64,000 bases of DNA from Elusimicrobiota bacterium (GCA_023213235.1 CP096137.1:71587-135586); one strand, 5' to 3'; counted from the first letter of the stretch, positions 771 to 63,238 are shown. The notes: a model not told the origin generated them from the sequence alone. A program made the numbers and translations.

Positions 771-1929
<1,159 letters not shown>

Positions 1930-1933
<4 letters not shown>

Positions 1934-2619
1934 AGTTCTCCGTCGTCGTCGCGGCGCGCAACGAGGGACCGCAGATCGGCTCCTCGCTCAAGCGCCTGCG
2001 CCAGATCTCCCAGACGAGCCCGATGGAGGTCATCGTCGTCGACGGCGGCTCCGACGACGGCACCGTCGAGGCCGCGCGCGAGTGGGCCGACGAGGTCGTC
2101 GCGCTCGGCAAGCCCAATCGCGGCGCGCAGTGGCACGCGGGCGCCGAGAAGGCGACGGGCGACCTGCTCTTCTTCCTGCGCGCCGACGCCCAGCCTCCGG
2201 GCAACTGGCAGCAGGCCCTCGAGCACTTCTGGCTCGCGACGCCGACGGGCGGACTCGCGGCGACGGCGTTCTCCGTCTCATACGGGAGCGGACTCGGCCT
2301 CAATATGCTCTCGATGTGGTCCAACGCGCGCGTGCGCTCGGGCCTCGCCTCCTCCGACCACGGGATCTGCACGACGCCGGAGATCTACAAGGCCGTCGGC
2401 GGCTTCCCCGAGTTCCCCGTGCTCGAGGACCTCGAGTTCTCGCGCCGCCTCACGGCGCGCGGCCGCATCGCGCTGCTGCCCGAGCGCGTCCGCCCCGCCG
2501 CCCGCCACGTGCACTCCGGCGGGCCGGTGTCCTACATGCTGCGCCGCCTGTGGCTCGAGACTCGCTACAAGGCGGGCGCCAAGCCCGAAGCCCTGCTGGC
2601 CGACGCCGCGTCCCTCTAG
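1930..2619 (+). CDS. Family 2 glycosyltransferase.
   Basis: GTG at 1930 overlaps the upstream stop (GTGA). VKFSVVVAARNEGPQIGSSL..VIVVDGGSDDGT..GDLLFFLRADAQPP is a GT-A fold with DxD-like motifs. It lies in frame within ORF 1693..2619. Confidence 0.8.
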
Positions 2620-2628
2620 AATCGTTAG

Positions 2629-2708
2629 AGGGTGTCAGGCCTAACAATTAACGATTCCAATGGATGCGCGCATTCCGGGGAATCGTTAATTGTTAGGCCT
2701 GACACCCT
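2629..2708. repeat. Hairpin element E1 of the GGTGTCAGGCCT family: 30-bp perfect stem with a 20-nt loop.
   Basis: Left arm is AGGGTGTCAGGCCTAACAATTAACGATTCC (2629-2658). The right arm is its exact reverse complement (2679-2708). The loop AATGGATGCGCGCATTCCGG contains the palindrome ATGCGCGCAT. I checked the pairing base by base. Confidence 0.9.
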
Positions 2709-2712
2709 ATAA

Positions 2713-3736
2713 CTATTCGGCCAACAAGACGGGCACGGTGGGGGAGGCGCGTCGGCGGGGAGCTGATCGAAGAAGTCCGAGATCAGCTTGGCGATGAGGT
2801 CGCAGTCCATCGTGTTGCACACGGCCACGCGCATCACCTTGTTGTGCGGCAGGCCCTGCGTGTACCAGACGGTGATGCGGCGCATGTTGAGCGCGGCGCC
2901 GCGGTCGCCGATCAGGGAGCGCTCGAGCGCGAAGTGCTTGAGCAAGGTCTCCTTTCTTTCCGCGACGGAGGGGACGTAGGGAGCGTCGATGCGTCCTTCC
3001 AGCCCGTCGTCGAGGTTCTTGTAGATCCACGGGTTGCCGAGGCCGCCGCGGCCGATCATGACGCCGTCGCAGCCGGAGACCTCGCGGATGCGCTTGGCGT
3101 CGGCGGCGGTGAGCACGTCGCCGTTGCCGATGACGGGGATCTTGACCGCGGCCTTCACCTTTCCGATGGCCTCCCAGTCCGAGCGGCCGGAGTAGCCCTG
3201 CGCCTGGGTGCGGCCGTGGATCGTGACGGCCGAGAGTCCCGCGGCCTCGGCCCGCTTCGCCAGCTCGACGGCCTCGTCGCCCGACGGGTCCTTGAAGCCC
3301 TTGCGCGTCTTCATCGTGACGGGAATCCTCGACGGGACGGCGTCGCGGACGGCGCGAAAAACCCTCTCCGCGCCGGCGGGATCCTTGAGCATCGCCGAGC
3401 CCTCGCCGTTGCCGACGACCTTCTTCACCGGGCAGCCGAGGTTCATGTCGATGAGGTCGAAGCCGAGCTCGACGAGGATCACGGCCGCGTCGGCCATCAT
3501 CTTGGGATCGCAGCCCAGCAGCTGCGCGCCGAGCGGCTTGTCGGCCTCGGTCGTGTTCAGCATGCGGCGCGTCTTGACGTTCTCGCGCGTCAGCGACTGC
3601 GCGGACACCATCTCGAGGTAGCACATGCCCAGCCCCTTCTCGCGCCCGATCAGCCGGAAGGGCAGATCGGAGCACGCGGCGAGGGGGATTGGATGATTCG
3701 CGACGGCAGCTCGAGGCTGCCGATCTTCAACGGCAT
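2713..3736 (-). CDS. dusB: tRNA-dihydrouridine synthase (DusB-like). There is a frame break at the G5 run 3683-3687. The 3' end is either 2713 (if the G5 run 2740-2744 is also undercalled) or 2625 as assembled.
   Basis: ATG at 3736 gives MPLKIGSLELPSRIIQSP, then after one added base ..LAACSDLPFRLIGREKGLGMCYLEMVSAQSL.. joins ORF 2625..3626 (DLIDMNLGCPVKKV, TIHGRT, IPVIGNGD). As assembled, the C-terminus reads through hairpin E1. The alternative frame ends ..PTVPVLLAE* at 2713. Confidence 0.8.
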
Positions 3737-6221: not shown

Positions 6222-8364
6222 ATGGTCACCACCGATTCCTACAATGAATGGCACCTCCCGGGCCGCCTCTCGCGCCTGAAGGATCTGGCGTACAACCTCT
6301 GGTGGAGCTGGCACCCCGAGGCGCGCGCCCTGTTCAAGGAGATCGACCGCACGCTCTGGGCCGAGACCCACCACAACCCCGTCTCGATGCTGCGCGCCGT
6401 GCCCCCGCGCGCCTGGAGGGCCTGTCGAAAGACGAGGCCTTCCTCGGGCGTCTCGACGCCGTCATCGGCGCCTTCGACAAGTACATGACGACGGACCAGA
6501 CCTGGTTCGCGAAGTCGCATCCGGAGATGAAGGGCAAGTCGATCGGCTACTTCTCGGCCGAGTTCGGCGTGCACAACTCGCTGAAGATCTACTCCGGCGG
6601 CCTCGGCATCCTGGCCGGCGACCACTGCAAGTCCGCCTCCGACCTCGGCGTGCCGCTCGTCGGCGTCGGCTTCATGTACCCCGAGGGTTACGTCGTCCAG
6701 AAGATCTCCTCCGACGGCTGGCAGCAGAACGTCTATGAGACCGTGAACTGGAACGTCTCGCCCGTGCGGCCCGTGTTCGGCCCGACCGGCGGGCGCGTGC
6801 TGCTCGACATCCCTCTCGGCCGCGGCACCGTCAAGGTCGCCGTGTGGAAGGTGCAGGTCGGCCGCGTGCCGCTGTACCTGATGGACACCAACGTCGACGG
6901 CAACTCGCCCCAGGACCGGGAGATCTCCGGCCGACTTTATGGAGGAGATCGTACGATGCGCCTGCGCCAGGAAATCCTCCTCGGCATCGGCGGCGTGCGC
7001 GTGCTGCGCGCGCTCGGCATGCACCCCGCCGTGTTCCACGCCAACGAGGGCCACTCCTCGTTCCTGTTCCTCGAGCTCGCGCGCGAGAAGGTCGCGGGCG
7101 GCTCCTCGCTCGACGACGCCCTGCGCCAGGTCGGCGAGAACGCCGTGTTCACGACGCACACGCCCGTCGAGGCCGGCCACGACGTGTTCGCCGAGGAGAT
7201 GATCGCGGAGTACTTCTCGTCGTATTGGCCGCAGCTCGGCGTCGACCGCGAGCGCTTCATGGAGTTCGCGCGCGTGCCCGGCCACTCCGGCTGGAACATG
7301 ACCGTGCTCTCGCTGAAGATCGCCCAGCGCCGCAACGCCGTCAGCCGCCGCCACGGCCAGGTCTCGCGCCAGATGTGGAAGGCGCTGTGGCCCTCGACTC
7401 CGGAGAACGAGATCCCGATCGGCCACGTGACCAACGGCGTGCACCTGCCGACGTGGGTGAACCAGGAACTGGGATCGCTGTACGACCGCTACCTCGGCGC
7501 CGACTGGCGCGAGCGCCAAGACGACCCGAAGATCTGGGAGAAGGTGACCGCGATCCCCGACGAGGTGCTCTGGCTTCAGCACAACCGCAACAAGAGCGCG
7601 CTGCTGCAGATGATGCGCGCGCGCGCCGCGCGCGCTGGATGAAGGAGAAGCACGACCCGGCGCAGGTGTTGGCCAGCGGCGCCCTCTTGGACCATCCCGC
7701 TCTCGTGATCGGCTTCGCGCGGCGCTTCGCCTCCTACAAGCGCGCGACTTTGATCCTCAGCGACGTCCCGCGCCTCAAGAAGCTCTTGTTCGACCCGTGG
7801 AGGCCCGTCCAGCTGGTGTTCGCGGGCAAGGCCCATCCCGCGGACGACGGCGGCAAGGCGCTGATCCAGCAGGTTTACCAGCTCGCGAAGAATCCCGAGT
7901 TCGGCGGCCGCATCGCCTTCATCGAGGACTACGACATGCACGTCGCGCGCTACCTCGTGCAGGGCGTCGACATGTGGCTCAACAACCCGCTCGCGCCTCT
8001 CGAGGCGTGCGGAACCTCCGGCGAGAAGGCCGGCGCCAACGGCGTGCCGAACTTCTCCGTGCTCGACGGCTGGTGGGAAGAGGGCTACAACGAGAAGAAC
8101 GGCTGGCCGATCGGCCAGGCCGGCGGACGCGGCTCCGGCCCCGAGGCCGACGCGGCCGACGCCGACGACATCTACCGCACGCTCGAGCAGAAGATCGTGC
8201 CGCTCTACTACGACCGCGACGACGTCGGCGTGCCGCGCGGCTGGGTCAAGGTCATGAAGGAGTCCATCCGCTCGGTCGCGCTGGAGTACGGCGCCGACCG
8301 CATGGTCAAGGACTACTCCAACATGCTCTACGCGCCGAAGCGGGAGGCCGTCGCCTCGCGGTGA
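6222..8364 (+). CDS. glgP: Alpha-glucan (glycogen/maltodextrin) phosphorylase, GT35, with two frame breaks: the C5 run 6402-6406 and the GC-repeat region at about 7612-7636.
   Basis: Three track ORFs (6222..6488, 6248..7642, 6844..8364) form one protein. Its sequence is MVTTDSYNEWHLPGRLSRLKDLAYNLWWSWHPEA.. / ..GGLGILAGDHCKSASDLGVPLVGVGFMYPEGY..FTTHTPVEAGHD.. / ..FAGKAHPADDGGK..EACGTSGEKAGANGVPNFSVLDGWWEEGY. Confidence 0.9.
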
Positions 8365-49856: not shown

Positions 49857-49934
49857 TGGTGTCAGGCCTCCCACTTTCCCACTTTTCTAGGGGGAGTATT
49901 CTGGAAAAGTGGGAAAGTGGGAGGCCTGACACCA
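49857..49934. repeat. Hairpin element E2 of the GGTGTCAGGCCT family: 31-bp perfect stem with a 16-nt loop.
   Basis: TGGTGTCAGGCCTCCCACTTTCCCACTTTTC (49857-49887) pairs exactly with 49904-49934. The loop is TAGGGGGAGTATTCTG. I checked the pairing base by base. Confidence 0.9.
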
Positions 49935-49949
49935 CAGGGCGTCTTTTGG

Positions 49950-49955
49950 TACCAT
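49950..49955 (+). promoter_or_regulatory. -10-like hexamer of the DoxX gene, with leaderless geometry.
   Basis: TACCAT, 6 nt, ATG at 49962. CTGACA (49926-49931, inside the E2 right terminus) lies 18 nt upstream. Confidence 0.4.
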
Positions 49956-62271: not shown

Positions 62272-62300
62272 AGGATGCCTCATGGCGGCGACCCCGTCAA
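62272..62300 (-). promoter_or_regulatory. Candidate promoter of the TPM operon, abutting hairpin E3.
   Basis: Minus strand: TTGACG (62300-62295), 17 nt, CATCCT (62277-62272), 7 nt, ATG at 62264. Confidence 0.35.
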
Positions 62301-62384
62301 GGTGTCAGGCCTTGCACTCTTGCAAACTTGGCCGCTCCGTTCCGCATAAGACCGGAACTTTGCAAGAGTGCAAGGCCTGACACC
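62301..62384. repeat. Hairpin element E3 of the GGTGTCAGGCCT family: 26-bp perfect stem with a 32-nt loop.
   Basis: GGTGTCAGGCCTTGCACTCTTGCAAA (62301-62326) pairs exactly with 62359-62384. The loop is CTTGGCCGCTCCGTTCCGCATAAGACCGGAAC. Confidence 0.9.
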
Positions 62385-62394
62385 GAGAGGGGAC

Positions 62395-62403: not shown

Positions 62404-62410
62404 CGACCGC

Positions 62411-63238
62411 ATGGCGGTGCTCGAGGCGCGCAATCTCTTCAAGCGGTATCCGAAGGCGAAGGTCAACGCCGTCGACGGGCTGTCGCTGTCGGTGGGGGAG
62501 GGGACGTGCTTCGGGCTGCTCGGGCCCAACGGGGCGGGCAAGACGACGACCGTCGAGATGATGATGGGCATCTCGCGGCCGGACAAGGGCGAGATCCTCT
62601 ATAGAGGAAAGCCGGCCGGCGCGGAGTTTCGCGAGCGCACGGGCATCCAGTTCCAGGACACCGCCCTGCAGGATCACTTGAAGGTCGGCGAGCTGCTCGA
62701 TCTCTTCGGAGCCCTGTACCCGCGGCGCCTGCCGACGGCCGAGCTCGCCAAGCTCTGCGATCTGGGCGAGCTGCTCGACAAGGACCCGGAGAAGCTGTCC
62801 GGCGGCCAGCGCCAGCGCGCGCTGCTGGCGCTCGCCCTCGTCAACGATCCCGACGTCGTCTTCCTCGACGAGCCGACGACCGGCCTCGACCCGCAGGCGC
62901 GGCGAAACTTCTGGGGCCTGGCGCGCTCGATCAAGGCGCGCGGCAAGACGTTGATCCTCACGACGCACTACATGGAGGAGGCCTACGCGCTGTGCGACGA
63001 GGTCGCGATCGTCGACCGGGGGCGCATCATCGCGCAGGGCCGGCCCGACGCGCTGCTCAAGGAGCACTTCGACGGCGTCACCATCGAGCTCGAGGGAGAA
63101 GAGATCATGACGAGCGACGTCGAGGCGACGCTCGACGAGCTGCGCCGGAAGGGGCGCAGCCTGGCGCACCTGCGCGTGCGTCCCCGCACGCTCGAGGACC
63201 TGTTCCTGCGGCTGACCGGCCGGGAGCTGCGCGAGTGA
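62411..63238 (+). CDS. ABC transporter ATP-binding protein (ABC-2 / DrrA-like exporter type).
   Basis: ORF 62411..63238. Walker A is GPNGAGKTT, the signature is LSGGQRQR, and Walker B is VVFLDEPTTGLD. Confidence 0.9.
   Translation: MAVLEARNLFKRYPKAKVNAVDGLSLSVGEGTCFGLLGPNGAGKTTTVEMMMGISRPDKGEILYRGKPAGAEFRERTGIQFQDTALQDHLKVGELLDLFGALYPRRLPTAELAKLCDLGELLDKDPEKLSGGQRQRALLALALVNDPDVVFLDEPTTGLDPQARRNFWGLARSIKARGKTLILTTHYMEEAYALCDEVAIVDRGRIIAQGRPDALLKEHFDGVTIELEGEEIMTSDVEATLDELRRKGRSLAHLRVRPRTLEDLFLRLTGRELRE

Follow-up and report, generated by a model that had tools for sequence, protein, structure and literature searches.

We found that three perfect hairpins in the 64-kb window (the whole stretch of DNA analysed), here named E1, E2 and E3, are a new and well-defined member of a known, neglected class of repeats, and not a new programmable hairpin. 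Because the same termini flank transposase-bearing elements of the TIRYT type, the hairpins are assigned to the TIRtron family, as dimers of its terminal inverted repeats (TIRs). The whole model, in which E1-E3 are TIRtron TIR dimers whose stem would be cut by an HUH domain and whose arms would be bound by a helix-turn-helix (HTH) domain, and which in Elusimicrobia form an old, vertically inherited population, is in our estimate about 82% probable.

Each of the three hairpins begins with the 12-mer GGTGTCAGGCCT and ends with its reverse complement AGGCCTGACACC, as the earlier note on this DNA had reported. Next to the 12-mer, E1 (2631..2706) has the inner arm AACAATTAACGATTCC, a 20-nt loop and a 28-bp perfect stem, E2 (49858..49933) the inner arm CCCACTTTCCCACTTTTC, a 16-nt loop and a 30-bp perfect stem, and E3 (62301..62384) the inner arm TGCACTCTTGCAAA, a 32-nt loop and a 26-bp perfect stem; no strand is assigned to any of them. 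The perfect stems are therefore 26-30 bp long when counted from the 12-mer, and up to 31 bp with flanking bases: positions 2629-2630/2707-2708 bring the E1 stem to 30 bp, within an imperfect palindrome that reaches 2619-2718, and 49857/49934 bring that of E2 to 31 bp, while at E3 a weaker complementarity extends out to 62293-62392. E1 had been placed at 2629-2708 because these extra complementary bases were counted. The exact 12-mer is found on the plus strand at 2631, 49858 and 62301, and its reverse complement at 2695, 49922 and 62373; an exact search of the 64-kb window gave no further copy of either, as had been claimed, the chance expectation being about 0.008 in 2 x 64 kb (calculated for uniform base composition). 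E1, E2 and E3 are the three longest inverted repeats of the window, lie 47 kb and 12 kb apart without forming arrays, and fold as single-stranded DNA at -41 to -42 kcal/mol (z = -12 to -15 with respect to shuffles).

Several details of the interiors were also as first described, namely the direct repeat GAATCGTTA at 2619-2627 and 2680-2688 of E1, the palindrome ATGCGCGCAT in its loop and the AT-richness of the inner stems (37% GC over all copies, as compared to 69% for the window). The proposal that the inner stems are tandem half-repeats finds weak support, with a best self-match of 0.52 vs. 0.42 in shuffles and a period of 7-8 nt. By eye, the layout of the E3 arm, TGnnnnnTTGnnAAA, looks like that of the TGAAACTTGACAAA arms of full-length elements.

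Each of the three hairpins lies either immediately behind a stop codon or shortly before a start codon. E1, which had been called intergenic, is not strictly so: a Dus-family (dihydrouridine synthase) ORF (2625..3626, minus strand; PF01207, E = 1.2e-71, domain end at residue 267/333) spans the whole hairpin. The last ~27 codons of this ORF are encoded by E1, its stop codon TAA is at 2625-2627 and its translation ends in ...YRVSGLTINDSPECAHPLESLIVRPDTL. By hand translation, the orthologous ORF at locus L082 also enters its own, different hairpin. From the opposite side, a GT2 glycosyltransferase ORF (1693..2619, plus strand), whose family assignment was confirmed, converges on E1; its stop codon (2617-2619) precedes the 12-mer by 11 nt, as had been stated.

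At E2, a promoter-like site (49926..49955, plus strand) is made up of a -35-like CTGACA from the right 12-mer, an 18-nt spacer and TG-TACCAT, and ends 6 nt upstream of the ATG of a DoxX gene (49962). Across the family, -10-like hexamers at 16-18 nt from CTGACA are not enriched and E2 alone fits, so that a general outward hybrid promoter was rejected. An intrinsic terminator function was likewise rejected, since no T-run or other terminator-like site follows the stem at E1, E2 or E3. On either side of E3 there is one copy of an imperfect 11-nt direct repeat on the plus strand, with a left copy CCTCATGGCGG (62278..62288) and a right copy CCGCATGGCGG (62407..62417) located 12 and 22 nt from the hairpin, respectively. 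The right copy holds the ATG of an ABC-ATPase gene (62411-63238) downstream of E3, and the extended -10 sequence TGGTATAAT lies between E3 and this ATG. Long flank duplications like that of E3 were seen at loci L001 (26 nt) and L038 (17 nt).

The termini of the window hairpins were found at both ends of a complete element in a Planctomycetota MAG (L051). This 1,043-bp element carries the exact 12-mer and the arm TGTTTTTTGTTTT at each end and contains a 336-aa ORF, which matches Pfam Y1_Tnp (E = 8.5e-11), scores 75.2 bits against NCBIfam NF047646 (REP-associated tyrosine transposase; cutoff 80) and shows a weak DnaA C-terminal match. The ORF terminates at the TGA contained in AGGCCTGACACC, and the right repeat supplies the codons for its last residues, K-T-K-N-K-A. 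A hairpin of 82 nt on the same L051 contig is an internal-deletion derivative, because it has the same arms and its loop is homologous to the arm-adjoining sequence of the full element. When metagenomes were scanned for the exact 12-mer followed, after 30-60 nt, by codons for the conserved N-terminus R-P-L-R-I-E-x-x-G-A, 94 contigs matched, all of them left ends, with ORFs of ~322 aa. The right end AGGCCTGACACC (0-1 mismatch) was present on 30 of the 94, mostly at 1,015-1,052 bp from the left end; the element size is about 1.02-1.05 kb, and the TIRs of the full-length copies that were scored are perfect over 14-22 bp. The idea of a conserved base serving as a recognition site for a recombination enzyme gains from these data, in that the termini are the TIRs of a Y1-transposase element, and the expected HUH/RAYT-type partner was found as a Y1 HUH transposase between the same termini.

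The HUH motifs NHFHL / NHYHL and the tyrosine motif RYVHLNPV are visible in the translations, and the C-terminus of the transposase matches the DnaA domain IV structures 3PVP and 8BTG. Thousands of homologues carry PF01797 and PF08299; at 90% identity the family splits into thousands of clusters, spread over many phyla, and many of the homologues bear the JGI name 'REP element-mobilizing transposase RayT'. Homologues elsewhere are flanked by GGGGTCAGACCT with TGTTATTTGTT or by GGGGTCAGGCCC with GGTTTTCGGTTTTC, with tandem half-repeats. In the left arms of the metagenome elements (TGAnnnTTGACA...), a -35-like TTGACA precedes a -10-like hexamer, and the two would make up a putative promoter of the transposase gene.

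Some full-length copies have subfamily-specific motifs of 5-8 nt in their left flanks, such as AAGCTAG, CAATT and GAATTCTT. The junctions of several full-length copies are stuttered: on the left, units of 5-10 nt of flank plus the first 4-8 nt of the element (GGTGTCA) are repeated (L113, L130, L133, L141, L186, L124, L128 and L192), and on the right, units of the last 6-13 nt (TGACACC) plus flank (L157, L168, L143, L160 and L192). Successive rounds of cutting and rejoining at the element ends may have left these stutters behind. At L110 (2835-2905) the left terminus GGGGTCAGGCCC occurs three times in tandem upstream of a single TIRYT gene, and an IS21-like istA/istB pair is present ~1.8 kb downstream.

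Full-length elements with the exact 12-mer are on contigs of 39-57% GC, as compared to 65-70% GC for the Elusimicrobia. No TIRYT gene was detected, by tblastn or by profile HMM on six frames, in the window or in the hairpin loci (at least 104); the hairpin-bearing MAG loci searched amount to ~0.7 Mb, mostly from Elusimicrobia and corresponding to ~1-2% of each genome. A metagenome pattern for full-length elements with Elusimicrobia-type arms (12-mer, N10-11, CAGTATT and the N-terminal motif) gave 0 matches, and the best 120 TIRYT protein matches came from Nitrospirota, Thermodesulfobacteriota, Nitrospinota and similar groups, with none from Elusimicrobia.

These features agree with what has been described for the TIRtron/TIRYT class, i.e. 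RAYT-like genes flanked by long TIRs with GGGGWSAS, where the TIRs exist in dispersed form as well, be it singly, as dimers or in groups (Di Nocera, De Gregorio & Rocco 2013, PMC3733652). The class is the same as subclass 2.1 of Quentin et al. 2018, which has Bac_DnaA_C/HTH C-termini (PMC6006769). The two papers found under the TIRYT/TIRtron name are both computational (PMC3733652, PMC6006769), and a literature search for the 11-mer gave unrelated primer matches only. Here, as in the published examples, a Y1 HUH gene lies between long TIRs rather than REPs (in L051 and the 94 contigs, E1-E3 containing no gene), the 3' repeat overlaps the gene end, the C-terminus is Bac_DnaA_C/HTH-like and TIRs are dispersed, in our case as dimers, with three in the window and at least 104 loci from the genome scan. 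The window termini GGTGTCAG match GGGGWSAS at 7 of 8 positions (T for G at position 3), and GGGGTCAG is found around homologous genes (L105, L109, L110). On the other hand, the published set consists of 26 examples without a sequence-level model, whereas here the terminus is an exact 12-mer. Also different are the abundance of perfect hairpin dimers of 26-32 bp in groundwater Elusimicrobia, where no TIRYT was seen in the loci searched, and the arm families, which are genome-specific and replaced at orthologous sites.

Among other known systems, REPIN-RAYT (Bertels & Rainey 2011, PMC3116915) shares with the present family the non-autonomous hairpin doublets of inverted repeats, in which a long hairpin arises from two units in inverted orientation around a variable, less conserved spacer, as well as the association with a RAYT-like Y1 transposase and a largely vertical inheritance with long persistence at conserved sites. 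However, the arms described here are not REPs (20-40 nt imperfect palindromes with GTAG), since the 6-nt AGGCCT is their sole palindrome and they are not tagged with GTAG, and the transposase has an extra HTH domain and is multicopy and IS-like in other lineages. The IS200/IS605 elements (IS608, ISDra2; 'peel and paste') have in common with ours the Y1 HUH catalytic domain and the lack of a regular target-site duplication, and the subfamily-specific motif in the left flank is reminiscent of their insertion 3' of a tetra- or pentanucleotide. Their ends, though, are distinct subterminal hairpins without TIRs, whereas the two ends found here are complementary and would pair with each other; perfect inverted repeats at the termini thus rule out ends of the IS200/IS605 type. 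DDE-derived MITEs (Correia/NEMIS, RUP, ERIC) are likewise short, gene-less, intergenic TIR pairs capable of forming hairpins, but depend on DDE transposases and have fixed target-site duplications and conserved interiors, in contrast to the HUH enzyme, the absence of a fixed duplication and the non-conserved loops of the present family.

Very stable hairpins with compensated stem variation, in which all four pair types occur at most inner positions, might also be expected of a structured RNA with a programmable stem, of an attC-like recombination site or of a bidirectional terminator, none of them connected with a transposon. We consider this very improbable, since the same termini bound a transposase gene on ~95 independent contigs and the hairpins lack T-runs and arrays. 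A programmable RNA stem, one of the initial suggestions, is unsupported: Rfam gave no match at gathering thresholds anywhere in the window, and terminal inverted repeats produce such stem covariation anyway. As to integron attC sites, the conserved ends, the variable self-complementary interior and the recognition as folded single strands are shared, but the resemblance is superficial, as the present hairpins have no R''/R' core (RYYYAAC / GTTRRRY), extrahelical bases, cassette arrays or integrase. An attC site was ruled out on the basis of the termini (GGTGTCAGGCCT / AGGCCTGACACC), the perfect stems and the distances of 47 kb and 12 kb between copies.

The TIR-dimer reading was extended to the wider population by a scan of one genome per species for GGTGTCAGGCCT-N40-70-AGGCCTGACACC, which gave at least 104 hairpin loci in more than 25 independently assembled MAGs. 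At least 84 of the listed loci were contributed by 15 Elusimicrobia MAGs from groundwater or sediment, with 65-70% GC, and seven other lineages are represented among the listed loci: Omnitrophota, Acidobacteriota, Planctomycetota, Chlamydiae, Desulfobacterota/Deltaproteobacteria, Anaerolineales and a Gammaproteobacteria MAG. At least 8 lineages share the 12-nt terminus without any change. Every copy was retrieved by exact 12-mers, which inflates the apparent conservation; sampling came to ~10 copies for each genome. An assembly or vector artefact has a negligible probability, considering that the loci come from MAGs of different studies and that many are orthologous with diverged sequence.

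The hairpins of this population have perfect stems of 26-33 bp and a bimodal total length (~64-68 and 76-82 nt). The earlier note had found the interiors unrelated, and this holds among E1, E2 and E3; more widely it does not, as the E2 arm recurs exactly, with different loops, in L006, L009, L033 and L095 (MAG GFS_2774), and close relatives of the E1 arm are present in other MAGs. The more general claim of hypervariable interiors, and hence of no REP/REPIN/MITE family, fell with the >100 copies, which show recurring, genome-specific inner-stem families: ATAGTTACTTCAATT..., AACGGTAATGACAGTATT, ACCGGTAGTTACAGTATT, CCCGTTGTTGCAGTATT, CCCACTTTCCCACTTTT (that of E2), AACAATTCGACGAATT (close to that of E1) and, in Omnitrophota, CCCCATTGGACAAAA. 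By our own tally there are 1-3 arm families per MAG. Two outcomes named beforehand as speaking against the original proposal, interiors conserved genome-wide and termini corresponding to IS inverted repeats, are essentially what was found.

At position 18, six bases past the 12-mer, 101 of 107 copies have a T, although any of the four bases is found at the neighbouring inner-arm positions; the recognised sequence may therefore be longer than the 12-mer itself. In the loops, motifs containing GGAAT/ATTCC are weakly enriched (17 of 105 vs. ~4 expected), for example in L014, L080, L002, L093, L103 and in E1 and E2 of the window; they are GGAATCTCCYC-like or resemble the palindrome GAATCCGCGGATTC, and recur across arm families and genomes. 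Regular target-site duplications, which had been proposed as a sign to look for, are absent: 72 of 105 hairpins have none, and in the remainder they are ≤4 nt. The flanks of the Elusimicrobia hairpins are AT-rich only (AAAAT on the left and ATTTT on the right). Long imperfect flank duplications with a score ≥ 9 were observed at 3.8% of the hairpins as compared to 0.4% of controls, with an overall p = 0.08. A few solo or partial ends also occur (L021, L094). L094 (1330-1386) holds a tandem of two partial right ends, CGGTAGGTCTGGCACC and CGGTAGGCCTGACACC, separated by 11 nt and lacking a left arm in the vicinity; these remnants adjoin a host gene with a CPCQSKKPYTSCC motif.

The arms of a copy resemble each other more than they resemble those of other copies of the same subfamily (1.0 vs. 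3.7 mismatches per 16 nt). This is in favour of the copy-the-other-arm mechanism considered in the earlier note, in which the second arm is synthesised from the first by snap-back or template switching, with perfect arms and a fresh loop as the outcome. Template switching during replication is well known as a mutational process that corrects quasipalindromes. Templated writing would agree with the seven copies in which identical CCCGTTGTTGCAGTATT arms enclose unrelated loops, as well as with the flips of loop orientation between L060 and L080 and between L052 and L053. As an account of the whole family it is nevertheless distinctly unlikely. The loops are no closer to their own flanks (6.76) than to those of other copies (6.73), so that copying of loops from nearby flanks was rejected; in about half of the copies, the inner 16 nt of the two arms are mismatched at 1-10 positions; and in lower-GC lineages the loops are inherited with the arms (L013/L049, two L021 copies, L051). 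With ~10 copies sampled per genome, sister copies would rarely both be seen. The similarity of arms within copies is a part of the proposal that stood, and it may reflect some copy-the-other-arm correction. Whole-hairpin mobility, in turn, is real in the lower-GC lineages, because there the loops travel with the arms; copying of entire hairpins predicts shared loops, and the seven CCCGTTGTTGCAGTATT copies speak against it.

The history of individual insertion sites was followed in 15 orthologous-site pairs, with flanks 67-95% identical across MAGs. The arm family was kept in 7 of the 15 (arms 81-100% and loops 25-82% identical), whereas the other 8 have unrelated arms despite flanks 71-95% identical, as in L023/L055/L093. 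The E1 site itself is orthologous to L082:4791-4869 (Elusimicrobia MAG STA_59), where the arm is different. Compared with the L082 site, the E1 flanks contain short duplications, TAGA-atcgt-TAGAg on the left (2617-2630) and CTAT-aa-CTAT on the right (2707-2718), which resemble the junction stutters of the full-length elements. The loops of L060:2291-2368 and L080:4754-4831, and those of L052 and L053, align best when one is reverse-complemented, and this suggests that the loop inverts between perfect arms.

True empty alleles were recognised in three comparisons (L011 vs. L038, L054 vs. L029, and L029 vs. L043/L054). At L043 (~1877-1940) there is a degenerate hairpin, GGTGCCAGGCCT...AGACCTGGCACC, at a site that is filled, with an exact terminus, in L029 and empty in L054; this hairpin is taken as evidence for decay in place. 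A hairpin with variant termini, GGGGTCAGGCTT...AAGCCTGACCCC, is located at L059 (~7446-7506), the same site in L040 being occupied by an exact-12-mer hairpin. At the corresponding site of L081 (~7040-7047) only GGTCGCGGGCCTGAG is left, which looks like termini fused at the palindromic AGGCCT and is possibly an excision footprint. In 1.26 Mb searched, no fused-termini footprint GGTGTCAGGCCTGACACC with <3 mismatches was found, and L081 is the single suggestive empty site.

The persistence of hairpins at orthologous sites raises the possibility that they are domesticated relics, derived from TIRtrons and now immobile, with stems kept for host use as has been proposed for REPs; they could act as 3'-end mRNA stabilisers, as transcription or translation punctuation, or as protein-binding sites. 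This reading, which we hold to be possible although somewhat unlikely, would account for the lack of a transposase near the hairpins, both in the window and at the hairpin loci, for the copies shared across MAGs at sites with 67-95% identical flanks and for the location next to stop and start codons. It is also in line with the better conservation of arms with respect to loops and flanks, best seen in L060/L080 (arms 100%, loops 72%, flanks 81-84% identical), even if conservation is inflated by the exact-12-mer ascertainment. However, E1-E3 have no terminator-like T-run and the family no general outward promoter, and the unrelated arm families at 8 of the 15 orthologous sites mean that ongoing replacement is needed and passive conservation does not suffice.

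The mobile TIR-dimer model does not fully explain the mix of conserved sites, genome-specific arms and drifting loops in Elusimicrobia either; there, conserved target sites may be re-used, the 12-mers may serve for exchange, and quasipalindromes may be corrected. A more far-reaching version, which we regard as speculative and unlikely, is that the TIRYT uses the conserved 12-bp base as a site-specific exchange point, so that resident hairpins would be conserved landing pads whose interior, arms as well as loop, is time and again excised and overwritten in place by the arm family that currently suits the transposase of the genome, with arms kept perfect by template-switch correction. If true, an HUH enzyme would drive a system of rewritable loci defined by their structure, unlike ordinary cut-or-copy transposition.

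In the mechanism that we propose for the TIR dimers, each hairpin represents the two TIRs of an IS-like element of ~1.02-1.05 kb, facing each other across a loop of 16-32 nt, with the transposase gene missing. The autonomous element encodes the TIRYT, a RAYT-like Y1 HUH transposase with a C-terminal helix-turn-helix like DnaA domain IV. On single-stranded DNA the two repeats would pair, enclosing a loop of 1 kb in the autonomous element and of 16-32 nt in the miniature form. This is the simplest model, given that the two ends complement each other and that Y1 enzymes work on single strands in folded form. The HUH domain would cut and rejoin the stem, with its conserved 12-bp base, as its substrate, and the junction stutters at both ends are a hint that cleavage may take place near the GGTGTC/AGGCCT boundary. 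The HTH domain would bind the inner repeats, which are natural candidates because they are AT-rich, lineage-specific and weakly tandem-repeated with a period of 7-8 nt, and each arm family would in this way have its own cognate enzyme. The loop is presumed to be unconstrained and to drift. In Elusimicrobia the hairpins would constitute an old, mostly vertical, REPIN-like population, in which conserved sites may be re-occupied or overwritten by the arm family active in that genome.

TIRYTs are a very large transposase family, present in many phyla and almost unstudied, and they pose a puzzle, since Y1 HUH enzymes work on ssDNA hairpins and yet these elements have terminal inverted repeats. The hairpin family described here offers a concrete substrate model, paired repeats with an invariant 12-bp base, together with a 12-mer consensus that is a precise handle for finding members and with natural minimal substrates of 64-85 nt. 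For the organisms themselves, TIR dimers explain the conspicuous perfect palindromes of groundwater Elusimicrobia MAGs, which can break assemblies and extend ORFs, as is the case here for the Dus gene.
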